Position numbers and translations under genes: made by a program. A stretch of DNA of 63,957 bases, counting the filler, from Collodictyon triciliatum (Eukaryota), in assembly GCA_043381765.1 (NCBI GenBank). It is 15 parts of 15 records of this genome, joined end to end, with 100 filler letters (N's around TTAATTAATTAA, not from the genome) between each part and the next. Parts side by side here need not be neighbours in the genome. Positions count along the whole stretch, not along the records: positions 47,383 to 51,677 come from JBHJMP010006270.1; 14 more parts are not named here. One strand, given 5' to 3'. The stretch's first letter is position 1. Each line of letters starts with the position of its first letter. The notes beneath the pieces are model-generated. The model searched no databases, was not told the DNA's origin, and was given only the letters and a program-made list of their open reading frames with translations. Below are positions 25,485-54,027 of this stretch, piece by piece.

Positions 25485-26180
25485 AATTGGCAGGGTTCGT
25501 TCGTTCGTTCGTTCGTTTGTTTGTTTGTTTGTTTGTTTGTTTGTTTGTTTGTTTGTTTGTTTGTTTGTTTGTTTGTTTGTTTGTTTGTTTGTTTGTTTGT
25601 TTGTTCGTTTGTTTGTTTGTTTGTTTGTTTGTTTATTTATTTATTTATTTGTTTGTTTGTTTGTTTGTTTGTTTGTTCGTTTGTTTGTTCGTTTGTGTGG
25701 ATAAGAATTTCAAAAGAACGATCTATTCCATACCTTACAATGTGGATAAATGTGGTGATCAATAATGAGAGACAGACTCTAGAGGAACTTGAAAAAAAAA
25801 ACACACCGAGGAGAGAAAAAGACACAATCTGAAAAATAATATTGCCACACTGGCGTTCTTTCCTTCTTCTCCCAACCCAACCCGCTGCGTTCAGAAGCCG
25901 GAAAAAAATAAGCAAGCGATCAGGAAGGGTGATCCTGAGAAGGACGAGAGCGCCCACCAGGAGACTGGCGCCACAGCCCTACCCCATGGAACACCTACTG
26001 ATCGTACGCAAAACGAGGAGGCCGATGCAGCCAACACGGAGAGCTGAAAGGTCACTTGACCACATCCCTTACAACATAGGTTATGCACCGAGACACACCG
26101 ACGACCAAGACGCCAGTTGCCATTGACCCGTGAGTGCAACAATCCATGAATAAGATAAAGCGAGCTCTTTGAGATAATAA
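25485..26180 (+). mobile_element. Dispersed repeat, copy 3: fragment of the partner-gene region of the Fanzor-associated element
   Basis: Aligns by eye with the reverse complement of 31850-32490 (shared CACTGGCGTTC..CCTTCTTCTCCCAACCCA, GCCACAGCCCT.CCCCATGGAA, TCACTTGACCACATC, GACCCGTGAGT, CGAGCTCTTTGA). Confidence 0.8.
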
Positions 26181-26407
26181 AAAATGAAATAACGAAATAA
26201 CGAAATAATAATAACAATAATAATAACAATAATAATAACAATAATAATAACAATAATAATAACAATAATAATAACAATAATAATAACAATAATAATAACA
26301 ATAATAANNNNNNNNNNNNNNNNNNNNNNNNNNNNNNNNNNNNNNNNNNNNTTAATTAATTAANNNNNNNNNNNNNNNNNNNNNNNNNNNNNNNNNNNNN
26401 NNNNNNN

Positions 26408-30806: not shown

Positions 30807-30875
<69 letters not shown>

Positions 30876-30999
30876 CTCTTTTTTTTTTTCCGTGATTGAT
30901 CGAGCTGAGACGGGGATTAGTATTCTGCCATAATCGCACCAAGTTGCCACCCCACTCGGAGCCCGGACAGTAAAACCATAACATAGTTAAATTATCACT

Positions 31000-32490
31000 T
31001 ACTAGATGGGCTACAACCCAGTCTTTCGATTGGTAAACTTGGTGCGCTAGTATCCAAGGTCTCACCACTTTTTTCACAAAGGTCATGTGGTGCTGGAGGC
31101 TGCCAGGAAAGACCCAACAGCCTGTTTTTTTAGAGAAAGGTGTATGCATATTTTGAAGGATTGAAAGAACTTTGTTGAGTATATCATTAGCGCTGTTAAA
31201 GTTCCTTATCAAGAATACAGTTTGTTCGCTTTCTGAGCGATTACATTCTTTACATATGACACATCTATACACCTTTTTTTTTTTATGTTTGCTTTCAATA
31301 TTATATATTCCAGTTCTTTTTCGCAGTTGCAGCACTTCTTAGAGGTTCTAAATTCATCTACACGAACTGTTTCAAAACGTTTGGTTAGTATTTTTTGTAA
31401 TCCTCTTCCGATTGTTGGCTTAGAATGTTTCATCTGAGATTTTCTGCTCCAGTCTCCATACGTCACTACAACATCCTTGCCAAATGTCTTTTCGATTCGG
31501 TCCATAAAGAATTCTTCGCTTCTTTTTGTATTAACATAATGTCTCCATCTCATCTTTCGAAAACTTACGTGTTCATAAAATCTGGATAAATCTATCTGGT
31601 ATATTGATTTCATAGATACATATTTTCGATTTTTTTTTTTCATAAACGACCGTGCATGAATTATGTTTACTCAGTTCTGTCTCTAAATCGATTAAAGATA
31701 CTCTTGATGTCTCAAACTGCTGATTCCCTTCAAAAGTCATGTGATCAAAAGAAATAGCTCTTTGTAAATCTGTTGCCGTGAATATCTTCCTACATGCGAG
31801 TCGATAGCTAGAGCTCGTTCTGTCTACTTTTTTCTTTCCCTTTATTATTTGTTTCAAAGAGCTCGTTCCGCTTTATTATTAGGTTGTTGTACTCACGGGT
31901 CGGTGGCAGCTGGCGCCTTGATCGTCAGTGTGTCTCTGTGCATAACCTGTGTGGTTAAGTGATGTGGTCAAGTGATCTTTTCGCTCTCTGCGTTGGCTGC
32001 GTCGGCCTTCCCGGTTTGCGTACGGTCAGTGAGCATTCCATGGGGCAGGGCTGTGGCGTCGGCATTCTGGTAGACGGTCTCCTCCTTCTCAGGTTCGCTC
32101 TTTCCGATCGCTTGCGTGTTTTTTTTTTTTGTTTTCTTTTCCGGCTTCAGAACTGGTGGGTTGGGAGAAGAAGGAGGGAACGCCAGTGGAGTAGTATTAT
32201 ACTCTGTAGGATGTGTCCTTTTTTTTCTCTCTCAGTGTGTGTATTGTTTCTCTGCAATGAAGATATCTTGTTTGTTTGGTTTTTTTTTTATTGTTCCTCT
32301 CAAGTCTGTCTCTCTCAGTCCGATCACAACATTTATTCACACTATGGAGCCTAAAAAATTATGGAATCAATAACTATATAATATAGAGTTAAAGATTCCA
32401 CAAAAATATATCAAAAGTTTTGGCTTGGATCTGAACGTGTTGTTATAACCACAAATTATTAACAATCAAACAAACCCTGCAAATTAAAAA
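31000..32490 (-). mobile_element. Fanzor-associated element, copy 1 (internally deleted, non-autonomous)
   Basis: 31022-31786 is homologous to 47849-48607. From 31783 the homology switches to 50607 onward, and 31850-32490 matches 25485-26180. Confidence 0.8.
31130..31786 (-). pseudogene. Fanzor1 (TnpB-like RNA-guided endonuclease), C-terminal fragment, frameshifted
   Basis: FRKMRWRHYVNTKRSE..TYGDWSRKSQMKH.KPTIGRGL..VDEFRTSKKCCNC..VYRCVICKEC..RNFNSANDIL, i.e. RuvC-II Glu motif, Zn finger and RuvC-III region; frameshifts fall in poly-A runs. Confidence 0.9.
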
Positions 32491-33624
32491 ATGAGCTGTA
32501 AAAAACAAAATATAGTAATATATTAATATAGGCGTAAATATATATATTATATTATTATCCACATTAAGATATAGTTTGGAATTTGAAAATTCGATTATTC
32601 GAACTTTTTTTTTTTATGCTCGAGTATTGTTGCAGTTTTGTGTGGCGCAACAGTTCGGTAGCTGCACCCTAAACAAAAAGTAAAAACAAAGTAAAAAAAA
32701 AAGTTAAAAAAAGTAAAAAAANNNNNNNNNNNNNNNNNNNNNNNNNNNNNNNNNNNNNNNNNNNNNNNNNNNNNNNNNNNNNNNNNNNNNNNNNNNNNNN
32801 NNNNNNNNNNNNNNNNNNNNNNNNNNNNNNNNNNNNNNNNNNNNNNNNNNNNNNNNNNNNNNNNNNNNNNNNNNNNNNNNNNNNNNNNNNNNNNNNNNNN
32901 NNNNNNNNNNNNNNNNNNNNNNNNNNNNNNNNNNNNNNNNNNNNNNNNNNNNNNNNNNNNNNNNNNNNNNNNNNNNNNNNNNNNNNNNNNNNNNNNNNTA
33001 ATTAAAAACGGAAAAAAAAGAGAAAAAAGAGAAAAAAGAGAAAAAAGAGAAAAAAGAGAAAAAAGAGAAAAAAGAGAAAAAAGAGAAAAAAAGCGAGAAA
33101 GAGAAAAAAGAGAAAAAAGAGAAAAAAGAGAAAAAAGAGAAAAAGAGAAAAAAGAGAAAAAAGAGAAAAAAGAGAAAAAAGAGAAAAAAGCGAGAAAGAG
33201 AGAAAGATAGAGAAAGATAGAGAAAGATAGAGAAAGATAGAGGAAGATAGAGAAAGATAGAGAAAGATAGAGAAAGATAGAGAAAGATAGAGAAAGATAG
33301 AGAAAGATAGAGAAAGATAGAGAAAGATAGAGAAAGAGAAAAGAAAAAATGCTTGAGACTTATAGAGAGAAGAAAGAAAAAAACGGTCCTGGGGCAACTC
33401 CGTCATTTCGTTTTTTTTTTCAAGGAACTCTTGCCATTTTACTCTCATTTATTTCATAAGCCTTTACTTTTTGATTTGATTCGGTTTGTTTTGTTTTTGT
33501 TATATAGCAGTCGACTGTTCGAGTGAACAGACCTAAAACTACTACTAACAAGAGAACTGCCAATGTTCATGTGCTCTTGCGTAGGCATTAAAGAACAAAC
33601 ACATTGGAGATATTGTAGCGCAGG

Positions 33625-34771
33625 ATGACGGTCCGAATCATTTGTGGAACCTTTGAACAACAGCTTTTCGGACTTCTTTACAATCCGCAGGAGAAAACCG
33701 CCCGAACCGAATTTACTAGTGCAACGCACCTTGGGAGTGTCCTGTCACTTGCTGTTCGAGAAAATATTCTGGTGTCTGGAAGCGTGGGGAATAGCATAAA
33801 GTGCCTATTGCTATTGCCTCTTTTTGTTTTTTTCTTTTTCTTTTTGTTTTTCTTTTTGTTTTTGTTTTTGTTTTTGTTTTTGTTTTTCTTTTATTTTTAT
33901 TTTTTGTTCTGTTCTGTTCTGTTTTGTTTTGTTTTGTTTTGTTTTGTTTTGTTTTGTTTTGTTTTGTTTTGTTTTGTTTTGTTTTGTTTTGTTTTGTTTT
34001 GTTTTGTTTTGTTTTGTTTATTTTGTTTCAATTCACGCGAAATGACGTTTGACTAAATGCGACACATTCGCGGATAGGATATTGAATTTGAAAGATTTGA
34101 ATGAGTCTGGGTTTTTGAACTGCCACGAAGGTAAATGATATAATTGTCCTTTATCTACGTATGTTTCCGTCAATTCATTTATTTTCTTATTTATTTAATG
34201 ATAGGATCGATAACCTGCGTGCAGTTTCATGCAAAATCTCATCTTATTTGTGGCTCATCTGACTCAAAAATATCGTTCTGGAGAACAAAAGATTGGGGGA
34301 ACTTACTCACTGTGCGAGCCCATAAGTAATTAATTAAGATGCAATCATATGTATTTTGCATTGATTTAATATATTAAGCATACCAATGATACGATTGTGT
34401 AAATGGAAACGTGAAAGGTCCAAATCTTTCCATTTGTCCAAAGTCTATTCCAAACCACCGAATGATACAACTACAAAATTGCCTTGTTTATGGCCAAAAC
34501 CTACGTCGAATTATTGAAAAGAAAAGAAAAGAAAAGAAAAGAAAAGAAAAGAAAAGAAAAGAAAAGAAAAGAAAAGAGAGAGAAAATAAACCAAAACAAT
34601 TAATATAAAAATTACTGGTTTCTTTTTAGGGATGGAGTGAACAGTGTCGCTATCCATCCTAGTGGCAGAATTGCTGTCTCGACAGGACGCGATAGTTTCA
34701 TTCGACTATGGGATTTGATGTCTGGTCGACTCGCGCAGGCGATGAAACTTCCGAAAGGTGCGTTCACGGAG

Positions 34772-34846
<75 letters not shown>

Positions 34847-35011
34847 GTTATTGTTATTTTTGCAAGTATAAGTTGAATTGGTATCTTCCGATGGAATTAT
34901 TCGCATTTCCTCACCACAGAATTTATAGAATCTGAGTTTGTAGCTTGGTCGCCTAGTGGAGATACCTATGCTTACATAATGGGCTCTAATATTTGTGTGC
35001 AGCGCGCCTCT
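33625..35011 (+). CDS. PAK1IP1: WD40 ribosome-biogenesis factor PAK1IP1/Mak11, N-terminal part
   Basis: MTVRIICGTFEQQLFG, HLGSVLSLAV..LVSGS, HEGSITCVQF..HLICGSSDSKISFWRTKDW, AHKDGVNSVAIHPSGRIAVSTGRDSFIRLWDLMSGR. Confidence 0.85.
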
Positions 35012-36106
35012 GTATTTATTTAAATAGAATCCTACATGTCATCTTATGGATATCAAAAAAACTATATAAGAAAATGTAATAATATAAACAACAATAACAA
35101 TACTAACAATACTAACAGTAATAACAGTAATAACAGTAATAACAGTAATAACAGTAATAACAGTAATAACAGTAATAACAGTAATAACAATAATAACAAT
35201 AACAATAATAATAACAATAATAATAACAATAATAATAACAATAATAATAACAATAATAATAACAATAATAATAACAATAACAGACTTTCACGTCTCCATC
35301 ACAANNNNNNNNNNNNNNNNNNNNNNNNNNNNNNNNNNNNNNNNNNNNNNNNNNNNNNNNNNNNNNNNNNNNNNNNNNNNNNNNNNNNNNNNNNNNNNNN
35401 NNNNNNNNNNNNNNNNNNNNNNNNNNNNNNNNNNNNNNNNNNNNNNNNNNNNNNNNNNNNNNNNNNNNNNNNNNNNNNNNNNNNNNNNNNNNNNNNNNNN
35501 NNNNNNNNNNNNNNNNNNNNNNNNNNNNNNNNNNNNNNNNNNNNNNNNNNNNNNNNNNNNNNNNNNNNNNNNNNNNNNNNNNNNNNNNNNNNNNNNNNNN
35601 NNNNNNNNNNNNNNNNNNNNNNNNNNNNNNNNNNNNNNNNNNNNNNNNNNNNNNNNNNNNNNNNNNNNNNNNNNNNNNNNNNNNNNNNNNNNNNNNNNNN
35701 NNNNNNNNNNNNNNNNNNNNNNNNNNNNNNNNNNNNNNNNNNNNNNNNNNNNNNNNNNNNNNNNNNNNNNNNNNNNNNNNNNNNNNNNNNNNNNNNNNNN
35801 NNNNNNNNNNNNNNNNNNNNNNNNNNNNNTTTTGGGCACTGTTTTCTCCAATTTTTTTTTTTGCTATTTTCTCCAATTTTTTCTACATTCAATGTGAGGT
35901 CTGCGATGTGGTGATAATTATGAAGCATATTATAAGAAATAAGGTTAATGATTAGTGGAAAATAATCCTTAGTAAAGCAATTCAGACGATGCTCATAACC
36001 GATTTCTCCCATCTTAAGTCTCTTGTGCTTCTGTTGAGCATCCTATTCTTATTTATCAGTACAATACTTTACAAATTTATTAGCCTTTTATATACCTCCT
36101 TTTAGA

Positions 36107-37190
36107 GACTTTATCGGCATCTCTCGAAGGAGGTTTTCCGGATGAACCTTGATGATGGTGATTTTGACCAAGAGGTCTCTCGGGTCAACACACAAAAGCG
36201 TTAGTATTTCCTCAAAGACTTTTCCTTATCAATGCGATGTGCTTATCCTCGGCCTTTTCGTAGGTTCTCCTCTCTCGTATCTGTACACTCACCACTGCTT
36301 AATTAGTTACCACAGGAGCCGTCCATCATGTGGAGTTTCGACTGCCGCGTGGTTCTGGAGCCGTATCAAAAAAAAAGGCGCTTCCCTCGCCTTCTGAGTT
36401 ATTCACTCCGTCGCCTGATGTAACCAAAATTCTTGTTTTCCTCTGAATAATTGAATCTTGTGCAAAATTTCAGATAACTAGTCCATTATAAAATGCAATT
36501 TGTTCGTACTTCCAATTTCAAGTGAGAACTCCGATTCTCTTAACCCATATGCATTCTTTAGATGATTGGAGGATCTGACACCCAGTTTCTTGGTAGTCTT
36601 GGTGCAAGACCGCTTAGTCATAAACTAAAATCCATCTCTCCCATGGAGAGGAGCTTCTCGCGCTCGTCCGACTTACCCAGTTATGTTCCATCGTCTAAGC
36701 GCCAAGATATGGTCCCTCCTGCTACAATAGAGGATATTTCTGTAACCCCCTTGCCACCGTCGCGCCCACAAAGCCGAGAAGAAGCACTCCGCGAATGGCA
36801 GATGATCAATGAGGAAAGGTACTGTTTTGCTTCCTTTTCATTCACCGGGAATACCACGAAACAAAATGTATTTTGTTCATCTGGGCTGTTGAGAATGTAT
36901 TTATATCTGAGGCTCCCAGCTTCAATTTGAAATTTCAAAAATAGGATGCACACAGTGTACATTTTTTCTCTTTATTCGATAGGATGCACACAATTGATAA
37001 ATAACAAAGACTCATTTATCCATCGACCAAGACGAAGATGTACAGACACACAATCAAGACATTCATCACTAAACTGATTACCACAAATGAAATCGATAGA
37101 AACTCTACCTACCAAAGAGCTATGATTGCAGCATTCAATAGCATATCTCGCCAGCGACTACCATCTCCATCACTTGGAAGCAGATGTCTT
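36107..37190 (+). CDS. Internal exons of an unidentified protein
   Basis: GT-AG bounded open exons, e.g. 36562-36818 MIGGSDTQFLGSLGARP..SREEALREWQMINEER; no family recognised. Confidence 0.35.
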
Positions 37191-37955
37191 TTTTTTTTTA
37201 AAATAATAATCACAATAATAATCATAATAATAATCATAATAATAATCATAATAATAATCATAATAATAATCATAATAATAATCATAATAATAATCATNNN
37301 NNNNNNNNNNNNNNNNNNNNNNNNNNNNNNNNNNNNNNNNNTTAATTAATTAANNNNNNNNNNNNNNNNNNNNNNNNNNNNNNNNNNNNNNNNNNNNAGA
37401 TAATAAAAAAAGATAATAAAAAAAGATAATAAAAAAAGATAATAAAAAAAGATAATAAAAAAAGATAATAAAAAAAGATAATAAAAAAAGATAATAAAAA
37501 AAAGATAATAAAAAAAAGATAATAAAAAAAAGATAATAAAAAGATAATAAAAAAAGATAAAAAAAAAGATAAAAAAGATAAAAAAAAGATAAAAAAAAGA
37601 TAAAAAAAAAGATAATAAAAAAAAGATAACAAAAAAAGATAATAAAAAATATATGTGGAATTACAAGGTGACGACGATCGGAATTCATACCTAGGTTATT
37701 ACTGAGTATAGCAGATGAAGAGAAAGGAAAAAAATAATAAAAAGGAAATGAACCAAGAGGATGGCTTGAGTTTGAGGTGATTGAGTGTAATGAGCCAATC
37801 TGTTTATTTCATTTCTTTTTCCTTTATTTTAAAAAGAAAATAGAGGAAAAGAAGAAAAAAAGAGAAACAGAAAGAGGAAAGAATGCGATAGCAGAGGAGA
37901 AGAAGAGGTAGTTGAGGGTAGAGAATAAAGAAGAGAGAAAAAGAGAGAAATGTTG

Positions 37956-40335
37956 TCAAATCTGCTTCATGGGAGAGCCAGCAGTGTCTGAGGGTTGTGG
38001 GACTCTTCGTTTCTTGATAGCAACAAAGGAGGCGGCACCAATGGCTGAGGCACCGACGGCAATACCACCAGCGACGAGGCCGGTGTTGAGGGCGCTATCA
38101 AAGAAGGCTTCGGAGTCTGCAGCTGGGTCAGCGGGGGCTTGAGGGCTGAAGGGGCGTTGACTGGGGCCACCACCACCGCCGCTGCCGGAGGCCGGGAGAG
38201 GGGCCGGATTGACGATGCCGATGACGGCGGTTGCGGTGGGAGGGTAGAGGATGCCGTCCTTGACAGGATGGGCAGCGAGGAGACGGCCGAGCCAGTCGGT
38301 GAGGACAACGTTGGGGGCGGCCGGGTCGTCGGGGGCGGCGAGGAGGGGCCCGACAAGGAGGTCGATGCCGCCGTTGGAGTCTGCTTGGAAGAGGGAGCGC
38401 TCGGAGGCGGGGGGCGACGGAGACGGGCCCGGGTACGGGGGCGGGAAGGCGATTGTGCGGAGGAGGGCGTCGGGGGCGGCGTTTGCGGCGTCGAGGGTGC
38501 GGGTGCCGTGGGTGTAGACGCGGAACTGGTAGAGGGTGTCTGGGGCTGCGTCGACGAGGATGCGGGCAAAGAGGGCGCGGGTGGTGGTGTTTGTGACGAG
38601 GTGGACGGCGCCGGTGAGGGGCGGGGACGCGAGGGTGGGGCCGAAGACGGCGACGCCGTGGGTGGCGGAGGCGTTGCCCTGCGCGATGCGGGTGTTTGGG
38701 ACGGCGGCGGCGGCCTCTGCCGGGGTGCGGTAGTCGGAGCGGCCGATGACGCACTGGGCCAGGCGGGGGCCGGCGTTGCCTGCGGGCTGCGAGAGGCCGT
38801 CGTCCGGGTTGAGGTGGACGACAACGGCGCGGCCGAGCACGGAGGTGGGGCCGGAGAGGCGCAGGCGCGGGTTGTCGGAGACGACGGTGAGGCGGGCGGC
38901 GGTGGCGGCGGGGGCGTCGGGGCGCAGGTCGGGCAGGTCGCCGACGTGGCCGGGGGCGGGGTAGAGCGCGTGGGGGTGGGCGGCGGGGTCGTAGTGCAGG
39001 CCGGTGCGCTGGGCGGCGGCGGGGTCGAGCAGGTCGCCGTACGTGTGGACGTGGAAGCCGTGCGTGTGGTTGGGCGCGGCGCTGAGCCCGGTCACGTCCA
39101 CGGCGACGCTTGCGGCACAGTCGAACTCGTCGGTGGCGTTGAGCCAGACAGACCCGCGCACGGGCAGCGCCGCGGCGAGGCCGGCATCGGTCGGGGCCAG
39201 CAGGCAGTGCGCGCGCGGCGGGACGGAGCGGGGCTGCAGCACGCTGTGCGCCGCGTGGACCGCAGGGTCGACCAGCCCGACGACGCATGCGGCAAGCACC
39301 GTGTCAGCACCCGCGCCGGGGCCCGTGCGGTGGAGCGCAAGCGCCCGGCCCAGCAGCGCGTTGAGCGCAAAGACGCTGCCGTCCACCGCCCAGGCCTGGA
39401 CGCGTGCGCCGCGGCAGTTTGTGCGCAGCGAGGCCAGCGGGGCGGGCGTGGTTGCGTTGCCCAGCGCCGCGGCACTGGCCAGGTCGCCGTAGCGGTGCGG
39501 GCGCAGCACATAGTCGGCGTCGGCCGCAAGCCCCGAGACGCGCACGGCCACGTGCAGGCGCCCCAGCACGTCGTTGGCCAGCTGCACCGTCCCGTTGACG
39601 CGCGCCCCGGGCTCGGCCGGATCGTCCACGGGCGCGGCCCCTGCGAGCGGCTGCAGCTGGCACGGGCGCCGCCGCAGCGTCGTTGGGCACCCCCGCGGCC
39701 TCGGTGTTGGCCACGCCGATCACGCACTGCGCAAAGCGGCCCCCGGCGTTGCCCGTGTCTGTGGCCCGGTCGAACGTGTCCGGCAGCTGATGCACCACCG
39801 CCGCGCGCCCCACCACGCTGCCCACCGTCCCGTCCAGCGCCACGTAGCGGCTGCGCGACCCCTGCGACGGCCCCGCGTACTCCCCCGCCCCGTCCCCAGC
39901 CACGTTGCCCAGATCCCCGTTGTGCGGCCGCGGATTCTCGTCGTCCGGGCTGCCGTGCCGCGCCCCGTCGCTGCCCGCCCCCACCGCAAAGTGGCCCCGC
40001 GTAAACAGCCCTGCGTGCGTGTCCGTCACGTCCCCGTACTGGTGCACGTGCAGCCCCCGCTGCTGCCCCGCCCCCAGCCCCCGCAGCGCAAGCTCGATCC
40101 CCGTCGTGTTCGCCCCTCCGTCCTGCTCAAAGTACACCGTCCCGCTCACCGTCCCTTGGCTCCCCCCGACTCCACTCATGTGGCACACCCCCCGCCGCAC
40201 CACACCCCCCACCCCACCGCACGTCGCCCACACCAGAACCGCAACCATCCCCACGGTCGCCAGCGTGCGCCTCGCCTGGCTGCGCCTGGCCGCACCGCCC
40301 TTGCTCTTGGCCCTCAGCGTGTCCTCTCCTCTCAT
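37956..40335 (-). CDS. Intronless type-I membrane protein with four tandem Cu/Zn-superoxide-dismutase domains (apparent frameshift near 39660)
   Basis: Domain 1: GLHVHQYGD..GHF..RHG..PHNGDLGN..GRAAVVH..GNAGGRFAQCVIG. Domain 3: GFHVHTYGD..LHY..PHA..GHVGDL..GRAVVVH..GNAGPRLAQCVIG. Domains 2 and 4 are degenerate. N-terminal hydrophobic segment; C-terminal TM GLVAGGIAVGASAIGAASFVAI followed by KKRR. Confidence 0.85.
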
Positions 40336-40445
40336 TCCTGGCCGGCGTTTTCTTCCCCTTATCTTCTCTCTAGAGGTTTTTTTTTTCTATTTGATTTGAT
40401 TTGATTTGAATTGATTTTTTTTTTTTATTTTTAAAAAAAAAAAAG

Positions 40446-40489
<44 letters not shown>

Positions 40490-42987: not shown

Positions 42988-45900
42988 TCTCAGTCTCAGT
43001 CTCAGTCTCAGTCTCAGTCTCAGTCTCAGTCTCAGTCTCAGTCTCAGTCTCAGTCTCAGTCTCAGTCTCAGTCTCAGTCTCAGTCTAAATCCCAATCTCC
43101 CCTGCAATGTCCACCTGGCCAGGAAAATAATCCATGCGGTGATTGCGGCCCCAGTGAGCCAGAAGTTGACATCGCCCTTGAATTCACTCCATTCGCTACC
43201 GGATACGCTCAGCTGCACACCCGAAAGTTTTCAAAATGGACATATTTGAGAAACTTGACCGGAATCACAGACGCAGTCCCAACAATAGACCTGCAGGCTT
43301 CAATCTCTGGTATTTCTTCTGCTTCTATGCAACTTTCGCCTTCTAAAGTTGAGCCCTTCTCTCCAACTGGGATTACACTGCCTACAAAGATATATAGCTC
43401 GTCGCCATCACTGAGCCTTCGTGTCTGGCTCACTGGACAAAATGGAGAGACTAACAACAAAGGCGGAACCATTACCATCAGCACAGTCGAGATACCGTCC
43501 TTGATGTCTTCATGCGTATACGATGGATTGAGCCCATGTTTGGCTACTCTTACAGTTCCGGCGTCGGCCTTCACAACCACAGATACCACTATCACCCCAG
43601 TAGCATCATTCGCCACAAAGATTGTCACATTGACACCCGCCACGCTCGTCGCCTTACCCAGCTATGGGTCCAATCCATCTGCAGGAATGAAATTGCAGCT
43701 GCCACAGAAACCCAACCTGCCTTCATCCGCGTTCACATCTTTGCTGACAGCGTACACAAATGGAAGAGTGCTCGAAGGCTTCAATGTTTTGATCAATATA
43801 CCATCATCTGTGGCGTCCATCGTGAGCATCAGCGGAGATGGCAAGTTCTCGGGTGCAACAAACATCCAACACAATAGTGCATCGATTGTGTGGACACGCC
43901 AAAGTGGCGCCAGCGACTCATCTGCCACAGGAGCGGTCAACGTTGCAACAATTACATGGAAGATGAACGATTCACCCACACAGATTAGGGGTGAAGTCAG
44001 CTTTATTATCAAACAGATGACAGACGTCCAGAACATACCGATAGTCAGCGAGTCAACAAACGGTATTGTGTTTGATATAATGCAGTCAAGCGAGACAGGA
44101 TATATTGTTGTCGCTCAGGATTCTATAAGAGGGTATTTCATCACTTCTCTTCAGCAGCAAATCGCCAACACAGCCGTAATCAACAAACGCAGTGTGACCG
44201 TACCACTCAAAGTATTAGAGTTCTACGAGTTTCAAACACCAAAAGATATTACGTCACAAGCATTATGCACCAGCTCCGACCCACAAGTCGCACCCGTACA
44301 AGGCTGTAATATTGTCATGACTGGGTGTGAGACATCCGGCTCAAACTTCGTGTCGCTCTCATACAAGTCCGCAACCACTGATGTCCGCGTGTGGTATCCA
44401 GCAGCTCCTATCCATATAAGCGCCCCCGACACGATACTCAATCGAATATCCAACTTGAAGACCGCTGATTGCTCTGGTTCCAGATATCAAAGCAGCAGAA
44501 TCACTGCGACTGTGTCATTTGTGAGTGGAAGTGACAGCTTCTTCGCCGATGTGTCCGAGTTGATTTCTCTAGAGGTATCTGACAGCAGCATCGTGAGCGT
44601 GAAAGATAAGACATTTATTGTCGGTATTGCTGCAGGAGTCGCTACAGTCAATGTCGCTGGATTCCCATCAAATACGCTTTCATTAATTGTGACTGACATC
44701 GAAGTCTCCGTGACGAAGCTGATGCCAATCGTGTTCACCGATGTATCGATAATTTCAGTGATGCCAAGCAGTGCATTGACACCCACATCTATCAGCAGCG
44801 TGAAGGCATCCGTGTCTCAAAATCTGGACTTTGAAGGCAAGGTGGGATATGTTGTAGTTTTTGCCTACTTTTCTGATGGCGCGCGAATGGAGATACAGGA
44901 GTCGGATGGTCTCACTATTACATCAACCAATCCTTCCATTTCGGTCATGAGCTCGCCTCCAAGAGTGATATCTGTCTCCAGCGGATGTGGATACTATGTC
45001 AATGTTCAGTGGAGCTCCTGTGGCAAGAGCCTTGGTGACGGACTCGGACTCGTCAACTTGAATCTACCCAAGATTACTCAAATAACAGTGACCGTCACAA
45101 ATACTAAAATCACGAGTGCCATTGACCCTTCTACGACCGTTGGCATACCCACGAAGAGCAATCTGAAGGTCATGTGCACGTTCGAGAATGGAAAGCAGAG
45201 TGACTACACAGTTGACTCCAGGACAAACTATGACGACATCACAGCTGATACAAGCAATATCATCCAAATTGAGACGGCAACAGTGCCATCCAGCGTCACA
45301 GAGGTCTATGTGGTTGCGACAGGCAATGGCTTCGGAACCGCGACGATAGTAGTGACAGTCAACGGCGCACCCAATTTACAGGAAAGCGTGGACATCACCG
45401 TGATTGGATTTGCGTCACTGAGTGTCTCATCCAGTCCATATCCTACATACACAGACTCCACCAAAGTGTTGCTGACTAAGCTGACTCGCTATGTATGCAC
45501 ACAGGTCTATCAAAGAGCGACGCTGGCAATGTCCATGAGACTAACTGACAACTCCGTTCATGACATCACGTCAAAACCACTGACTGTATTCTCTGTACCC
45601 ATAAGTCAGCAAAATATTTTGGCAATCAAAGATAAAACTATCCTTGAACCGACTGGCACAAACTTCGGAGCTGCTACTATCACAGCCTCTTATGGGAATG
45701 CGTTAGCTACAATAGACATCGTGGTCTCGGACGAAACAGTAAGTGCGACATCGTTGGCAACCTTATTTCCGTCAACATACACCGGTATCATCGGAACATC
45801 AACACAAAGCATCAAAGCGACTGCTATATTTCAAGACGGAACAAAACATCCAATCGCCCACACCATCACTGGGCTATTATCTTACACCAGCGATGACCCG

Positions 45901-47282
45901 GGATCAATAGCTATCGACACCGCAGGAACAGCGACCATACAAACGAATTCGATAAGTCAAGTAAAACTGACATCATCAACATGCTATGGAGTCGTAGGAA
46001 CGTCAAGCACCTATGCCAATCTGAGTCCGGATGTCGGTGATGTCGATATTGGAAGTACAAACGGCCTTGCATTGAGCAACATTGCAGTTGGGTCCAGCCT
46101 GACAGTTCCTGTTCGTGTCAACACGGGAACAAAGGCACTTGGAAGTATCGATACTAGTCTTATCTATGACGCAGACATATTCAATGTTACTTCATACTCC
46201 ACTGGAAGCGGCTGGCCAGGCGGACAACTAGAGATTACCTTGAACGACCCACCAGGGGTCATTCGTATTGTAGGCGCGACAAGTCCAACCAGCAACTCAA
46301 AGGGAACACTAGAGGTTGTCAAGCTAGTCATCAGAAGCAAACAGAATGGGCTATCATATTTTGCTGGCTTCATCACCAAGATGCTAGCTAACGATGCAAC
46401 GTCTTCATCTATTGGAAGCACACTTGTGCAAGGTCAGACAAGAGCGATAGTAGCTGGTAACGCCCCAGTAAAAAGCGGAACGGGAATCAATTTGAGAGGT
46501 TCTTCGAGGAAGGGAATGTATTTGGATGCGAGACAACAACATACTGCAGCCATACAACAAGCCGGTAGAACATCACAGACATGCAATCCAGCTAGTATTC
46601 TTGGAAATACGGACGGAGACTGCGAATTCTCAGTCGGCGATGTCCAGTTTACATTAAGGTATCTTGCTGTCCTAGTCACTGCATCATTACAGCCATACCA
46701 ACTGCAATACTTGGATGCGGACAGAAATGGAGAAATTCAAGTTCAAGACGCGATATACTTGATTAGAGTGTTGGCAAACAAATGGCGATTCTTCAATGTC
46801 CGCACCATTGAGCCGACCAGCTCCAGTTCCTATCTCCAAGTTTCTATAGACTCACAGACGGCTGATATGGCGTACTCGTCGGCAAAAACGTTATATGACA
46901 TACTTTTCCTGACAACATTGAACACAGATATGACCATTATATTTGGGACAAACAAACAAGCGTTTGCTGACGGATTTCAAGTATCAAGCAAAGACTTAAA
47001 CAATGGAACATTCACTGTCGTTGGAGACGTATACAACTCTGAACTAATTGGCATGTCGATCCATCTAAAGACATATGACAGCTTTGGGCAATCATCCAAC
47101 GACCGAGACGTGACATTCTATCAAGGAGTGGGAGGTACTTACATTAGTTTTGCAACAATAAACGCAAAGTTTGACTCCACTCCATCCAAATCTCAATCTC
47201 AGTCACAATCCCAATCCCAATCCCAATCCCAATCCCAATCCCAATCCCAATCCCAATCCCAATCCCAATCCCAATCCCAATC
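42988..47282 (+). CDS. Large intronless TMEM132-like extracellular protein: cohesin-like domain, tandem Ig-like (BIG) domains, second cohesin, dockerin; (SQ)n repeats at both contig ends; partial at both ends
   Basis: One open frame across the whole contig (>1400 codons). TMEM132-type motifs IANTAVINKRSVTVPLKV, DITSQALCTSSDPQV and VWYPAAPIHISAPDTILNRI..C..SRYQ; cohesin-like VGSSLTVPVRVNTGTKALGSIDTSLIYD (~46080-46395); dockerin-like GNTDGDCEFSVGDVQFTLRYL..DADRNGEIQVQDAIYLIRVL (~46597-46780). Confidence 0.8.
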
Positions 47283-47382: not shown

Positions 47383-47447
<65 letters not shown>

Positions 47448-47848
47448 AAACAAATTAAAGGGGAGAATAAAATAAAAGAGAAATTAGATCTAGTTGTACC
47501 TGGGGTTTAAGGGGGAAAAAATGTACAAAAAGAAGGAAAGAAAGAATATGTGGGAATAGTTGTTTTGCTCGTGGCAGTTTGATGGATGGTCAACTTTTTT
47601 ATTCTTGGGTGAGTAGATCGAGAAGGAAAAGGTGCCAAACCTCAAAGACGTGAGAGGGTTTCTCGGTTGTGGTAGCATAACGGGGTTTCAAATAGACATG
47701 CACAACCGCTGATTGGATGGGCAATAAAGACTTATGGCTTTTTCATTTATTTAAAAATCCAGAAATGCAAAACAATTTGTGGAAAATATATTACACACAC
47801 TCGCATAATTTAATGATGTTTTATTTACTACAAGGATGAGTATACCAT

Positions 47849-47955
47849 TCTTTCGATTAGTAAACTGGTTCGCTAGTACCGAGGGTCTCATCACTTCTTT
47901 CACAAAGGCCGTGTAGTGGTGAAAGGTGTCAGGAAAGACCCAACGACCTGTTTTT
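47849..47955 (-). ncRNA. Candidate Fanzor omegaRNA (fRNA) scaffold; homolog at 31022-31130
   Basis: Sequence at and beyond the Fanzor 3' end is conserved between both copies, with nested inverted repeats GGGTCT(47883-88)/AGACCC(47936-41) and CTTTCAC(47897-903)/GTGAAAG(47919-25). The position matches known Fanzor omegaRNAs. Confidence 0.55.
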
Positions 47956-47959
47956 TTTT

Positions 47960-49840
47960 CTTTTAGGAATGGTGTACGCATATTTTGAAGGATTAAAAGA
48001 ACTTTTTTGAGTATATTATTAGCGCTGTTAAAGTCCCTTGTCAAGAATACACTTTGCTTTCTGAGCGATGACATTCTTTACATACGAGGCATCCATACTT
48101 TTTTTTTTTGAATTTCCTTTCAGTGTCATATGTTCCAGTTCTTTTTCGCAGCTACAGCTCATCTTGGAGGTTCTAAAGTCATCTACACTAGCTGCTTCAA
48201 AACGTTTGGATAGTATTTTTCGTAATCCTCTTCCGATTGTTGCCATAAAATGGTTCATCGGAGATTTTCTGCTCCAGCCTCCATACGCAAGTACAGCATC
48301 CTCGCCAAATGTCTTTTTGATTCGGTCCATAAACAACTGTCCACTTCTTATTGCATTAACATACTGTCTCCATCTCATCTTTCGAAAAGTTACTTGTTTA
48401 TAAAATCTGGATAGTTCTATCTGGTATCTTGATTTCATAGATACATATTCTCGAAATTTTTCATAATCGACTGTGCTTGAATTATGTTTACTCAGTTCTG
48501 TCTCTAAATCGATGAAAGATAATCTTGGTGTCTCAAACTGCTGATTCTCTTCAAAGGTTACATAACCAAAAGAAATAGCACTTTGTAAAACTGTTGACAT
48601 ACATATCCCTGAAAAATTGTACTTTTTTTCTCGCGCAAGAGCATTTTGTGATTTTTAAGAGATTTGCTAACATGTCTTCTTTGGTGTGCCGTGTAACGTA
48701 ATTTCTTACTGTCTCATCCACCATGTAAACCAAATTAAACTTGCCTGCGTCCACTCCAACTACTATTTTTTTCCGCTAATGAAGATATCTGCTCTTCTGA
48801 AAGTTCATCTATATAAACATATTCTGGAGTCTTTTAGTTATTTTTGGATTTCGAATTTGAAGTACCTTTCTTCTCAAACAATAATGACACTGCCAACCCG
48901 TCTGTTTGTATCATGTATTTAAAATTGTAGTCTGCTTGATGAAAGACCATCTTCTTCATTTCAAAGGAATCATCCCTTAGTGTCTCTTTGCATCCTGATA
49001 TATTATTCAGGAATGATATTTTTCCCAGTTGATACTAATAGATATATCAAACATGCAGTATCTTGAGTAACATGACATGGTATATTGGCAGTTCTTTTAG
49101 AGGTTGGTTGAAAAAGTGTGGCTCCAATGTCCTCAAAAATGGGATTCATGTAAATCAGACATGGAATGTAATTGTTTGAATTGACTTTGATGTCATATTC
49201 GATACCTTTTACAATATCGCTGGGAATGATACCATGCAAATGCGTTATAGTCCATCTTTATATTGCTATGGTATTTCGAGATTCTTGAAGATGGCTTTTT
49301 TTAACTTTCGTAACTCTGCCCTTTTGATGGCTTCCGCAAGCTTCTTCATCTTTAGGAACTGTTTGATTTATAAAGCGCAGTAACCTCTTTACAAAATGCT
49401 TCTTAATGTTATTATGATAAGCTGTTAACATTTGCTTCAACAAGTACAGTAGTACATGAGACAGTCTAACCAACGGAAAGCGTTCTTTTTAAGACAAAAG
49501 GAATCGAAAATCATTGAGATAAAAATTCATCATATCCTAACTCATATCTGGATGTTTTAAACTTGCGTGTCTATCTTGTGAACCTGCTCCGACTGTCTTC
49601 AAAGCGTACAAAAAAAAAATACATTTCATCGGTTGCTGGGAGTGATTGTGATTTCAATATGTAACATCTCGCAAACAGATAAGTGCCGGTAACCAAATTA
49701 TGACACAATAAAACCGTATCGTTGATTTTTTAATAGTCATCCGCATTCCTTATAATCGACTTTAGAGATGTTTCTACATTTTGATAGTCTGGTTTTACAG
49801 ATTTTAGATTCTCAGACTCAAGACGTTTTCTTTTCTTCAT
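47960..49840 (-). pseudogene. Full-length but decayed Fanzor1 gene (many stops and frameshifts)
   Basis: In order: MKKRKR..YQNVETSLKSIIR; QMLTAYHNNIKKHFVKRLLRFIN; YDIKVNSNNYIPCLIYMN..LFQP..RTANIPCHVTQDT; VVGVDAGKFNLVYMVD (RuvC-I Asp); FRKMRWRQYVN; AYGGWS; VDDFRTSKMSCSC; FLTRDFNSANNIL (RuvC-III Asp). Confidence 0.92.
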
Positions 49841-50559
49841 CTGAAAGTCTTTGTTTTATTTTTTGCTTCAGAAAACTGCCGAGTTTTCAATTTTAATAAA
49901 ACTTTAGTCCATCAAATAAAAAAAAAACTGCACAAAATCAATGAATGTAAAATTAAGCATCTGTCGAGACTCTCAAAATGTGCGCTTTGTGGCAAACAAA
50001 CACACAAATGTTTTTTATAAGTGATTTGAGAGAAAACGCTGAGCCGATTCGGCGAGTTCGAAAGGACGGCCGTACAGCCATGGCGACTAAAAGCCAACAT
50101 ATCGGCCCCAAACAAAATGGTCACCGCCGCAAGTATGGATAGTACGCTTTTTTGAAATGCATGTTTGGTGGCAGGTTTATAGGGCGGGTTCTGTCTGGGC
50201 CAAGGCAACAGCTTGTTTGTAATTTTGGATTTTAGTGACAATATTACATAATGGAAAATAAAATATAAATTAATTTAAAGAATAAAGTGAGATTTAACAT
50301 TTTTAACTTTAGTATATTACTAATAATACTATTATATTATTCAGGTTGTTTCTTGGATTCATCAAAGCTCCTGCTTTCGTCAACCCAGATTTTATTTAAT
50401 GGTTGTCTGTGCAATAAATTGCTATACATGGGTGCACTTTCGTTGTATAATGAGTGTTGTGCCTGGAAGGGACAAAACCAAGTTCGTCACAACCTTTGCA
50501 ATGAATTTTATCCATTTACAGGCTGAATGAGACCGAAGGAAAAAAAAGGAAAAAAGAAA

Positions 50560-51320
50560 CAGATGAACGAATCAGAGCAACCAATACTGAGTATCATATT
50601 CATACTTATCTTGCTACCCGTGAGTCGATAGCCAGAGCTTGAGGTCTTTTTAAACCCTCTCGTCAGTAGTTTCATGTTCTCTTCGATTCCTTGCGCGAAC
50701 AGCTGGGCCATTGAGCCTTTCATCTCTTTGCTGGAATATCTCCCATAGCCGTCTTTGTCTATCGTAAACCCGCATCTTTGCTAGTATGCCTCTTCTTTCT
50801 TCAGGGCGTTTGCTGCGTCGGCCTTCTCGGTTAGCCCCTTTAGATCGCTTGCTTGATTTTCCGGATTTGGATTTACAGATTTGGAATTTAGGTGTATTTG
50901 GATTTGGACTTTGGGCGTCGGCTGGGCTCGAACATCCTGATATAGAAACGAACAAACAAACAAACAAACAAAACAAACAAACAAACAAACAAACAAACAA
51001 ACAAACAAACAAACAAACAAACAAACAAACCCTCTGAATTTATGGTATGGAAAACCACCAAAGAATAATACGCCTCCAACTTCGGCGAAATGTACTTGTT
51101 GCGAGGAAATAACTTCGGTAAACGCTCGTTGGGACATTTGCCAACTCCAATCACGTTTTTTTTCTCTGAGCTCAGATTCAGTAATGATCATTGTCGCGGA
51201 CACAGAAAACATCGGACACGTCGACTTGCCGAAAGGACAGTGCGATCGAGTTCCCTCTTTTATTCAATTGTTTACTATGCTCAGCCCTTATTAGATTACC
51301 AGAAGTCTTGTCTGAAGCCC
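50560..51320 (-). pseudogene. Unidentified, intron-containing, degraded partner gene upstream of Fanzor (same orientation)
   Basis: AG acceptors near 51320 and 50938, and the peptide PENQASDLKGLTEKADAANALKKEEAY*..EMKGSMAQLFAQGIEENMKLL. The xADAAN motif recurs in copies 1 and 3. Confidence 0.45.
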
Positions 51321-51902
51321 CTAACAAAAAAACAAACAAAACTATGATGTGTGGTATTAATATCACATGATAATAATTAAAAAAATATTATTATGAGAAA
51401 GAGAGAAGAAAAAAATTAGTGACACTTCTCGTTTTTTATTTCTTTTGGATTCGATCCATAGTTTTGTTGATCATAGATGTTTGTGACACACTCATTCTTG
51501 AATAAAAAAATAATAATCTGTTATCCGCACATATGTATATACAATACCCTCAGCAAACTGATCTTTCTATTATATCCCATTTCCTCATTTATTTGTCAAA
51601 ACAACTTCTTTACTTTTTTTTTAAAAAAAAATTAGTCCTGGAACAAACAAACAAACACACACACACACACACACACANNNNNNNNNNNNNNNNNNNNNNN
51701 NNNNNNNNNNNNNNNNNNNNNTTAATTAATTAANNNNNNNNNNNNNNNNNNNNNNNNNNNNNNNNNNNNNNNNNNNNGTTTCTCAAAGTCCATTGTCAGG
51801 AGATCTGCGTAGTTGCCGCGGGCTAGGCGGCCGGTTGGGGCTGCGTAGATGCCCGACTGGATGTTGGGACTGGCTGCAACCTGCGTTGGTGGAGGGTTTG
51901 TG

Positions 51903-53458: not shown

Positions 53459-54027
53459 TGTTGCTCAATAAACAGGGAATTGGGCTTCGAATTTTCCCCA
53501 TAACTGACACATAATGCTATATTATGACAAGGAAAATTCAATTATTGTGCTTTATGCATGAATAAACCTTTCTTTGTGTATGAATTATAATAAAAAAAAA
53601 CATCGACTAATGTATAGAGGAAAAAAACAGAGTGCTCGAAGTAGAGAGATGATAAAAAAACATCTGATTGCTTAAGACTTACAGTTTTCGCATTCGGGCA
53701 TAGTGGAGAGCCTTGCTGACTTTGCGTGTGTGAAGCAGACTTCGTTGTTGCTCAATATAAAGGGCATTGGGCTTCGAATATTCCACATATCTGACACATA
53801 TCGCACTATTTACACAAGAAAAATTCAATTTTTATGCTCTATGCATGAATAAGCCTTCAATACGGATTATGACAAAAACAACATCGACTAATTGTATGCA
53901 AGTACAATGCAAGGTGCTCGAAGCGAAGATAAAAAAATAGAATAACTGATTGCTTAAGACTTACGGCTTTCGTATCCGGGCATAATGCAGAGCCTTGCGG
54001 GTCTTGCGTGTGTGAAGCAGACTTCGT
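53459..54027. repeat. Diverged ~290-bp tandem duplication
   Basis: TGTTGCTCAATA..ATTGGGCTTCGAAT..CTGACACATA..ATGCATGAATAA..AACATCGACTAAT..GTGCTCGAAG..CTGATTGCTTAAGACTTAC occurs twice, from ~53459 and from ~53746. Confidence 0.88.

Follow-up and report, generated by a model that had tools for sequence, protein, structure and literature searches.

Decayed copies of a Fanzor1 nuclease family in the Collodictyon triciliatum genome assembly

The window, by which we mean the whole 63,957-nucleotide stretch of DNA analysed here (Collodictyon triciliatum, GCA_043381765.1), carries two related loci on its minus strand: copy 2, a full-length Fanzor1 pseudogene whose gene-equivalent lies at 47874–49840, and copy 1, a 5′-truncated Fanzor1 fragment at 31018–31786 that represents the last ~40% of the gene. 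The extent of copy 2 was defined by frameshift-aware alignment to the intact protein P0002 together with tblastn, and that of copy 1 by blastn to copy 2 and alignment to P0164. A first-pass annotation had pointed to both loci correctly, but its limits did not hold: copy 2, which it ended at 47960, continues ~90–115 bases further in the 3′ direction (the gene-equivalent to 47874, the similarity to 47845), and the span of copy 1 is not 31130–31786. Because the window is made up of ~15 individual contigs with N spacers between them, the occurrence of both copies “within 64 kb” does not mean that they are physically linked.

The closest full-length intact relative is P0002 (634 aa), a protein of a metagenomic Fanzor1 element represented by loci L001–L006. 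Its residues 1–634 are colinear with copy 2 (264/618 identical, 42.7%) in a frameshift-aware alignment that contains nine frameshifts and five in-frame stops, and the tblastn pieces of copy 2 fall in frames −3, −1, −2, −1, and −2. Four of the nine frameshifts lie within homopolymer runs of at least seven bases (T10, A7, A7, and A11), one of these sites being at 49610–49619, so assembly error is possible and the true number may be lower; the other five lie outside long runs, and one of them is a 4-base deletion relative to copy 1.

All the motifs that had been listed for this family were found in the ORF lists on the minus strand and in the stated order. In copy 2, the start codon and basic N-terminus, MKKRKR (49823–49840), align with the P0002 N-terminus (MKRKKADK); this segment is NLS-like, by analogy with what Jiang et al. 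2023 (PMC10530073) describe. It is followed by YHNNIKKHF (49419–49393), YMN..F.P..RT..IP (49152–49078), and the RuvC-I motif VGVDAGK (48740–48760, Asp codon 48751–48749), which stands in a separate frame with one frameshift on each side. Downstream are YGGWS (48285–48271), the RuvC-II motif VDDFRTSK (48163–48186), the zinc-ribbon (TNB) region (48071–48159), and the RuvC-III motif RDFNSANN (48015–48038, Asp kept at 48035–48033). Within the zinc ribbon, the first CxxC has decayed to SCSC (48159–48148) by replacement of its first Cys with Ser, with the loss of one ligand, and the second CxxC (CLVC, in CLVCKEC at 48091–48071) is intact; between them, an A11 run (48099–48109) is a frameshift site.

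Copy 1 is identical to P0164 at 140 of 223 residues, with three frameshifts near 31638, 31285 (at an A11 run, 31274–31284), and 31134. It contains YGDWS (31460–31446), a RuvC-II motif with the Glu kept (VDEFRTSK, 31361–31338), both CxxC pairs of the zinc ribbon with a frameshift between them (CCNC, 31334–31323; CVICKEC, 31263–31243), and a RuvC-III motif in which Asp has become Asn (RNFNSAN, 31206–31186), all on the minus strand. The segment corresponding to RuvC-I is missing through truncation.

The active-site residues were assigned by alignment to the solved site of SpuFz1. Profile A2, which comprises 70 full-length homologs, has six invariant columns, including D372 (RuvC-I), E530 (RuvC-II), and D581 (RuvC-III); these align to chain residues 777, 935, and 1000 of 8gkh, corresponding to SpuFz1 D383, E541, and D606, which are given as Mg ligands by Saito et al. 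2023 (PMC10432273). The RuvC-II column is Glu in 70 of 70 homologs, and copy 2 has Asp there (codon 48180–48178); the RuvC-III column is Asp in 70 of 70, and copy 1 has Asn. The three positions therefore read D/D/D in copy 2 and –/E/N in copy 1, and the catalytic damage is complementary between the copies, as had been proposed from the sequence.

Homology searches gave a consistent picture of the family. The 208-aa piece of copy 2 at 48031–48654 (−) matched 1481 proteins at E ≤ 1e−3 and 542 at E ≤ 1e−10 among 1.84 billion representatives, and the match of the motif array is far beyond chance. In tblastn searches, all eight full-length homologs used as queries matched both loci, colinearly with each, and no other locus in the window. 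Against the PDB, the same piece of copy 2 matched PpFz1 (2.3e−10), SpuFz1 (5e−4), and GtFz1 (0.08), with Fanzor1 proteins accounting for all three matches at E ≤ 10; the copy 1 piece matched PpFz1 (9.6e−12), SpuFz1 (5.4e−7), and GtFz1 (1e−5), which were three of its five matches, the other two (E 0.19) being unrelated. When profile A2 was searched against 177,635 distinct PDB sequences, it matched PpFz1 (5e−106), SpuFz1 (4e−101), and GtFz1 (1.8e−78), each over the whole length, and the next-best match was LaTranC (1.2e−3). None of the nine window pieces reached a Pfam cut-off, the best being PF07282 with the copy 1 piece (17.2 bits against a cut-off of 26.3); among the eight full-length homologs, PF07282 (TNB) was above the cut-off in two and sub-threshold in three more. 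A word-index search for longer homologous proteins found none, but the exhaustive protein search did find homologs. These comparisons support the placement of both loci in the Fanzor1 family, in agreement with the first-pass annotation. The Glu of a DExxTS motif before the zinc finger, which had been taken as a Fanzor1 hallmark, is less specific than supposed: a rearranged RuvC-II Glu is reported for all Fanzors and TnpB2 by Jiang et al. 2023 (PMC10530073) and is thus not a Fanzor1-specific mark.

Copies 1 and 2 (the latter at 47845–48607) share 84.8% DNA identity over 776 blastn columns, and their flanks are unrelated by blastn. This identity, together with the alignment to P0002, bears out the earlier description of one full-length decayed copy and a second copy. 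The dN/dS between them is 1.18 (115 codons), with 17, 16, and 13 differences at the three codon positions; the two copies have diverged neutrally since they split. Both loci are thus very probably pseudogenes of one Fanzor1 family that have drifted neutrally, and numerous diverged copies of the family very probably exist in the source organism or in close relatives of it. The two copies are probably ordinary transposon relics, and nuclease function is no longer possible for either. It had also been suggested that an active ancestor could be reconstructed from the two copies; they do not suffice by themselves, since they overlap over only ~770 bases and share the A11 frameshift, and the N-terminal 60% is present in copy 2 only, with seven of its nine frameshifts and all five of its stops.

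The shared lesion bears on how the copies arose. Both have A11 where 12 A would keep the frame (48099–48109 and 31274–31284), which would fit descent from an already broken master that was spread by the machinery of other elements. Long A tracts are prone to repeated slippage and to sequencing miscalls, however, and P0162, P0032, and P0164 read through the A-run site in frame, so that we regard such a master as rather unlikely; it would in any case be a variant of neutral decay in one Fanzor1 family and no true rival to it. Programmed frameshifting at the A11 run was considered separately and rejected, because these three related fragments stay in one frame there.

The guess that the family is present in high copy number proved sound. 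At ≥85% likeness, run X1 supplied 315 contigs and run X4 supplied 311 that lie on 47750–49860; at ≥99%, the numbers were 29 and 30, respectively. Contigs of these runs have a sense codon at three of the five stop positions of copy 2, and those three stops are therefore private mutations of copy 2. Five short public protein fragments are 73–82% identical, with three different ones on each of two regions, so that at least three further distinct fragments per region exist in public protein sets. The family is a multi-copy, dispersed repeat. The best share of words in the public runs was 0.12, and no listed run is recorded as RNA. The lake-water and freshwater metagenome runs X2 and X3 contributed a few 150-nt contigs with zero differences, from which no habitat claim is drawn. 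The summed contig depth on copy 2 drops toward its 3′ end (bins below 47962); since contig depth cannot rank parts of the stretch, this drop was not used to place the element end. Scans of metagenome and viral contigs gave no close relatives of the window piece, and no intact close copy of the family was found in these contigs or in public protein sets.

The closest intact relatives suggest a viral connection. These P0002-like proteins, 76–100% identical to P0002, occur in part on metagenome contigs of 254, 173, and 66 kb, where the neighbouring genes encode a ribonucleotide reductase small chain, a fused mRNA capping enzyme, MutS, and helicases, and which are giant-virus-like; several of the nearest Atlas clusters are mostly Nucleocytoviricota. 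One might accordingly read copies 1 and 2 as what is left of giant-virus DNA that entered the host genome and not as a host transposon family. However, the P0002-like relatives share only ~43% identity with copy 2, next to which no viral gene was detected, the flanks of the two copies are unrelated to each other, and the hundreds of diverged family contigs in two runs fit amplification within a cellular genome. A viral origin of the copies is therefore very unlikely.

A further alternative is that copy 2 is a live gene and that its lesions reflect homopolymer assembly errors, an alternative code in which TAA and TAG are sense, introns, or a combination of these. The four frameshifts in runs of 7–11 identical bases could be of the first kind, and eukaryotic Fanzor genes may hold introns, as noted by Jiang et al. 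2023 (PMC10530073). The stops of copy 2 are all TAA or TAG (5/5, with 0 TGA), a pattern also expected if the code read these codons as sense; from the stretch’s own trinucleotide counts, its probability is ~0.06. In contrast, the five frameshifts outside long runs, including the 4-base deletion, the Asp in place of the invariant catalytic Glu, the lost zinc ligand, the inter-copy dN/dS, and the sense codons at three of the five stops in other copies all argue against a live gene. An open frame of 1380 codons on a neighbouring contig contains 66 CAA/CAG and no TAA, TAG, or TGA, which argues for the standard code, with the reservation that the contigs are not proven to come from one organism. 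An alternative code was rejected as the explanation on account of this frame and because the nine frameshifts would remain. Taken together, a live copy 2 is highly improbable, and the pseudogene reading is retained. That the family is Fanzor2 or a prokaryotic TnpB (e.g., from a contaminant) is hardly conceivable: the PF07282 zinc ribbon and the rearranged Glu are common to Fanzor2 and TnpB2, but no Fanzor2 or TnpB chain matched A2 at E ≤ 1 among the 177,635 distinct PDB sequences, as against three full-length Fanzor1 matches, and in the family’s ~630-aa protein the N-terminal half is long and can be aligned to Fanzor1.

A live element of this family would be expected to encode a protein of ~630 aa that enters the nucleus by means of its basic N-terminus. 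The 3′ end of the gene and the right end of the transposon would serve as template for the guide RNA (omegaRNA/fRNA) that the nuclease binds, and the matching DNA would then be cut beside a short motif by the RuvC site, formed by the Asp of RuvC-I, the rearranged Glu of RuvC-II next to the zinc ribbon, and the Asp of RuvC-III. Work on SpuFz1 and other Fanzors has established RNA-guided cleavage; for the window family it is only inferred by homology, and it is not expected of the broken window copies.

Interest in Fanzor1 proteins, which are compact eukaryotic RNA-guided DNA cutters, comes from genome editing and from the role they may play for their transposons. The window adds one Fanzor1 lineage, which shares only ~43% identity with the nearest intact relative and has many copies in a eukaryote, although the organism might already be among the loci or species of published Fanzor surveys. 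The dead copies give no new mechanism, and the lineage would be useful only if a genome-wide survey turned up either members that are intact or a consensus that is open, together with element ends and a guide RNA. On host–virus traffic of these elements, the occurrence of related transposons on giant-virus-like contigs offers one minor further observation. As a tentative idea, the source organism (or the close kin represented in X1 and X4) may hold an unusually large and partly young Fanzor1 family, in which open active members or a consensus with its own guide RNA and target motif could exist, possibly with exchange with giant viruses.

The window copies were also compared with the P0002 element. 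This element is 3.3 kb long and is bounded by terminal inverted repeats of ~32 bases (L001, 174–205 and 3472–3503), whereas no such repeats were found in the window: the best score around copies 1 and 2 was 21, against 19.5 ± 2.5 for shuffles. It encodes, on the other strand, a 343–346-aa transposase with DDE_3 and HTH domains; in the window, the best match to a DDE transposase like those of the relatives had an E-value of 4.8, and Pfam searches of nine flanking ORFs gave one sub-threshold STPR match, the STPR-like ORF being at 50653–51039, and no transposase. A 160-nt 3′ stretch of the P0002 element is 90% conserved, and 8 of the 70 pairs predicted for its structured RNA carry compensatory changes; no such scaffold was found in the window. 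There, Rfam searches identified no families, the fold z-scores at the 3′ ends of the copies were −0.77 and −0.82, and none of 48 predicted pairs showed a compensatory change between the copies. With default filters, model R1, which represents the relatives’ scaffold, found L008 (3e−12) and had no match in the window; with filters off, its best match in each copy was at the homologous spot and was weak (3.0 and 4.1 bits, E 0.43 and 0.17). The window family further differs from P0002 by an insertion of ~25–30 residues after RuvC-I. A likeness is seen at the 3′ end: the ORF of the intact relatives ends 51 bases before the right end of the element, and ~30 bases separate the expected stop of copy 2 from the point where inter-copy blastn similarity ceases (47845, with 31018 in copy 1), so that 47845–47873 (−) is the probable right end of the element.

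Among the solved proteins, PpFz1 (Parasitella parasitica, 9cf0), SpuFz1 (Spizellomyces punctatus, 8gkh), and GtFz1 (Guillardia theta, 9cer) have the same D/E/D columns as the window family, and a basic N-terminus and a Glu that immediately precedes “TS” and the zinc ribbon are likewise common to them. Unlike these proteins, the window copies are pseudogenes; furthermore, SpuFz1 is described by Saito et al. 2023 (PMC10432273) as flanked by inverted repeats, and none were found at the window copies. Fanzor2 and TnpB proteins (e.g., ApmFz2 and ISDra2 TnpB) are alike in having the RuvC fold, a zinc ribbon, and a guide RNA from the 3′ end, but they are shorter than the ~630-aa proteins of the window family.

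Sequence comparison assigned both minus-strand loci of the window to Fanzor1, as the first-pass annotation had proposed. A profile (A2) of full-length homologs matched the three solved Fanzor1 structures, those of Parasitella parasitica (PpFz1, E-value 5e−106), Spizellomyces punctatus (SpuFz1, 4e−101), and Guillardia theta (GtFz1, 1.8e−78), over essentially their full length. The next-best PDB matches were LaTranC (1.2e−3 and 2.5e−3) and then a Cas12m (0.016), and no Fanzor2 or TnpB chain among all PDB sequences was matched at E ≤1. The profile was built from 70 of 72 proteins of 560–800 aa; P0151 and P0152 were left out because they fall in the 90% cluster of P0002, an intact 634-aa metagenomic homolog. 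Run exhaustively against 1.84 billion representatives, phmmer yielded 1481 proteins at E ≤1e−3, 542 at ≤1e−10, and 5 at ≤1e−30, many of the homologs being 590–790 aa long. When individual pieces were compared with all PDB sequences, copy 2 (48031–48654, minus strand) had only three matches, PpFz1 (2.3e−10), SpuFz1 (5e−4), and GtFz1 (0.08), and copy 1 matched the same proteins (9.6e−12, 5.4e−7, and 1e−5, respectively) together with two chance hits, both at E 0.19. None of nine window pieces reached a Pfam cut-off, the best being PF07282 (Cas12f1-like TNB) at 17.2 bits vs 26.3; among eight full-length homologs, this domain was at cut-off in two, sub-threshold in three, and absent in three. The closest ESM Atlas clusters, which serve as leads only, were eukaryotic (Zoopagomycota, Mucoromycota) or from Nucleocytoviricota, some with PF07282. 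The glutamate of the DExxTS motif had been taken as a Fanzor1 hallmark, which does not hold, because Jiang et al. (2023, PMC10530073) describe the Glu beside “TS” as the rearranged RuvC-II Glu of all Fanzors and TnpB2. The Fanzor1 assignment is therefore based on the profile result and not on the Glu-TS layout. On these sequence grounds, both loci are relics of one Fanzor1 family.

All the motifs listed earlier were found on the minus strand in the claimed order when the ORF lists and coordinates were checked. Copy 2 carries the basic N-terminus MKKRKR (49840–49823), YHNNIKKHF (49419–49393), YMN...IP (49152–49078), VGVDAGK of RuvC-I (48760–48740), YGGWS (48285–48271), VDDFRTSK of RuvC-II (48186–48163), SCSC (48159–48148), CLVCKEC (48091–48071), and RDFNSANN of RuvC-III (48038–48015). 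Copy 1 carries YGDWS (31460–31446), VDEFRTSK of RuvC-II (31361–31338), CCNC (31334–31323), CVICKEC (31263–31243), and RNFNSAN of RuvC-III (31206–31186). Three of the six invariant columns of A2, D372, E530, and D581 (P0002 numbering), align to residues 777, 935, and 1000 of chain 8gkh_P, which, minus the 394-residue fusion offset, are D383, E541, and D606 of SpuFz1; these three and N385 are given as the ligands of its two Mg ions by Saito et al. (2023, PMC10432273). At the catalytic positions, copy 2 reads Asp, Asp (replacing the Glu), and Asp, and copy 1 lacks RuvC-I, keeps the Glu, and has Asn in place of the RuvC-III Asp, so that the catalytic damage is indeed complementary. Full-length Fanzor1 homology, the three catalytic columns, the zinc ribbon, and the basic N-terminus were all observed here.

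A frameshift-aware alignment of 49900–47701 (minus strand) spanned residues 1–634 of P0002, showing that copy 2 is full length but decayed; between 49840 and 47874, 264 of 618 aligned residues were identical. This alignment contained nine frameshifts (near 49615, 49320, 49255, 49017, 48764, 48714, 48628, 48105, and 48054) and five in-frame stops on the minus strand, TAA at 49730–32, 49489–91, and 48834–36 and TAG at 49537–39 and 49266–68. Runs of T10, A7, A7, and A11 hold four of the frameshifts, some of which may stem from misassembly; the other five lie outside such runs. All five stops are TAA or TAG (chance about 0.06), as a variant code with these codons as sense would give, but a 1380-codon open frame on the contig next to that of copy 2 uses CAA/CAG 66 times and never TAA, TAG, or TGA, so there is no sign of such a code, and the frameshifts would remain in any case. 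Against P0164, a partial but intact relative, copy 1 had 140 of 223 residues identical with three frameshifts and no stops, and copy 2, over the same part, 129 of 221 with two frameshifts. Both copies have A11 instead of the frame-keeping A12 (48099–48109 in copy 2, 31274–31284 in copy 1), between the two halves of the zinc ribbon. A programmed shift is ruled out, since P0032, P0162, and P0164 cross this site in one frame; the A11 frameshift is a lesion shared by the copies, a recurrent lesion or slippage hot spot, or a homopolymer miscall. Copy 2 (47845–48607) and copy 1 (31018–31786) are 84.8% identical as DNA across 776 columns; aligned globally, they show 663 matches against 99 substitutions and 8 indels. 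Over 115 ungapped codons, dN/dS was 1.18, with 17, 16, and 13 differences by codon position; the two copies have drifted apart without selection on the protein. Neither copy can make a Fanzor1 protein.

The family was also described as high-copy on the grounds of two copies within 64 kb. Two copies are present, but their proximity is not physical linkage, because the window consists of about 15 unlinked contigs, mostly of about 4.3 kb, separated by spacers of 44 N, 12 bases, and 44 N, and copies 1 and 2 lie on different ones (30807–37297 and 47383–51677, respectively). The high copy number itself was confirmed in public sequencing runs, where 315 (X1), 311 (X4), 9 (X2), and 22 (X3) contigs matched 47750–49860 at ≥85% likeness; the RNA or DNA type of X1 and X4 is a guess only, and these counts say nothing on expression. 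By likeness (≥99, 95–99, 90–95, and <90%), the contigs numbered 29, 65, 123, and 98 in X1 and 30, 60, 121, and 100 in X4, with 10–16 distinct contigs per run overlapping at single positions. A word index of public runs gave a best share of the stretch's words of 0.12. At three of the five copy-2 stops, other copies have a sense codon: TAC at 49730 in all aligned contigs (X1, 10; X4, 15), CAA at 49491 in all aligned contigs (X1, 5; X4, 8), and GAG at 49539 in four of four X1 contigs and one X4 contig. Several of the frameshift sites also coincide with, or lie close to, indels of one or four bases in the aligned contigs (48708, 49345, 48052, and 49015–49026). Many lesions are therefore private to copy 2; the family formerly had open members and may still have them. 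In public protein sets, five short fragments from contigs of 513–631 bases (P0161, P0162, P0163, P0036, and P0037) were 73–82% identical to copy 2, and another (P0092) about 70%. Regions 48373–48633 and 48103–48438 were each covered by three different fragments, so each has at least three further copies, all fragments. The best longer relatives were P0164 (223 aa, 58% identity), in which a single frame contains the Glu, both CxxC pairs, and the Asp, and P0001 (209 aa, 49%); no full-length protein in the sets searched exceeded 58% identity. Multi-copy dispersal and neutral decay are thus observed features of this family.

The closest intact relatives were obtained from the 10 metagenome loci fetched with P0002. 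A 3.3-kb unit in L001 (174–3503) recurs at 73–80% identity in L003 (1637–4952) and in L005 and L006 (both 1631–4951). It has terminal inverted repeats of ~32 bases, a DDE_3 and HTH_28 transposase of 343–346 aa on the opposite strand (E 1.3e−13 and 1.5e−15), and a 634-aa Fanzor1 gene that stops 51 bases short of the right end; judged by sequence, these elements show the live-element layout of the lineage. For three of these loci, the contigs (254, 173, and 66 kb) resemble giant-virus genomes, with neighbours including a ribonucleotide reductase small chain, a 949-aa fused mRNA capping enzyme, MutS, and helicases. The last 160 bases (L001, 3345–3503, and the matching ends of L003–L006) are 90% conserved, vs 73–80% for the whole element, and RNAalifold predicted 70 pairs in hairpins, 8 with compensatory changes. 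This region is likely a guide-RNA scaffold overlapping the gene end, and its covariance model, R1, found the more distant L008 (4705–4869; 51% identical) at E 3e−12.

In contrast, no counterpart of these features was found beside the window copies: neither a transposase nor a terminal inverted repeat (best local score 21 vs 19.5 ± 2.5 in shuffles). Folding of the window tails was no more stable than that of shuffled sequences (z −0.77 and −0.82), and none of the 48 predicted pairs covaried between the copies. R1 gave no matches in the window with default filters; with filters off, its best match per copy was in the homologous position and on the correct strand, without reaching significance (3.0 and 4.1 bits, E 0.43 and 0.17, <1 kb searched). 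The element probably ends on the right near 47845, because inter-copy likeness stops there, about 30 bases beyond the site that is colinear with the stop of the relative; beyond the shared segment, only microsatellites are alike between the two contigs. Microsatellites or homopolymer runs occupy both ends of most window contigs, so the assembly breaks at simple repeats and statements on element ends are limited. Copy 1 is truncated at 31786, and a dispersed repeat lies 55 bases away (31841–32341, 75–81% like 25741–26184 in opposite orientation).

Elsewhere in the window, an ORF on the strand of copy 2 (50653–51039, minus), ~800 bases upstream of it, matches the DNA-binding repeat STPR below threshold (PF21107, E 2.5e−5, 25 bits, cut-off 27). 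Contig 42988–47282 (plus) is a single open frame of 1464 codons, including its microsatellite ends, with TMEM132-type Ig domains (PF16070, E 5.3e−10) and no stops of any kind. Contig 37398–40489 has 74.5% G+C, vs about 22–53% in the other 2-kb bins, and long frames with two Cu/Zn superoxide dismutase domains (E 1.4e−26 and 1.1e−22); its composition sets it apart, and it may derive from another organism in the assembly. At 53857–56138, several frames are open on both strands, and a short peptide-like unit recurs many times in a tandem DNA repeat of ~53% G+C.

From what is known of the family (Saito et al. 2023; Jiang et al. 2023), a live member would enter the nucleus, would bind RNA derived from its own 3′ end and from the transposon's right end, and would cut guide-matching DNA beside a short motif. 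Mechanistically, the window copies offer nothing new and are relics of an already known kind of nuclease. Decayed Fanzor1 copies are common: S. punctatus alone is reported to have full-length and partial Fanzor genes plus 134 “ghost” loci (Saito et al. 2023, PMC10432273).
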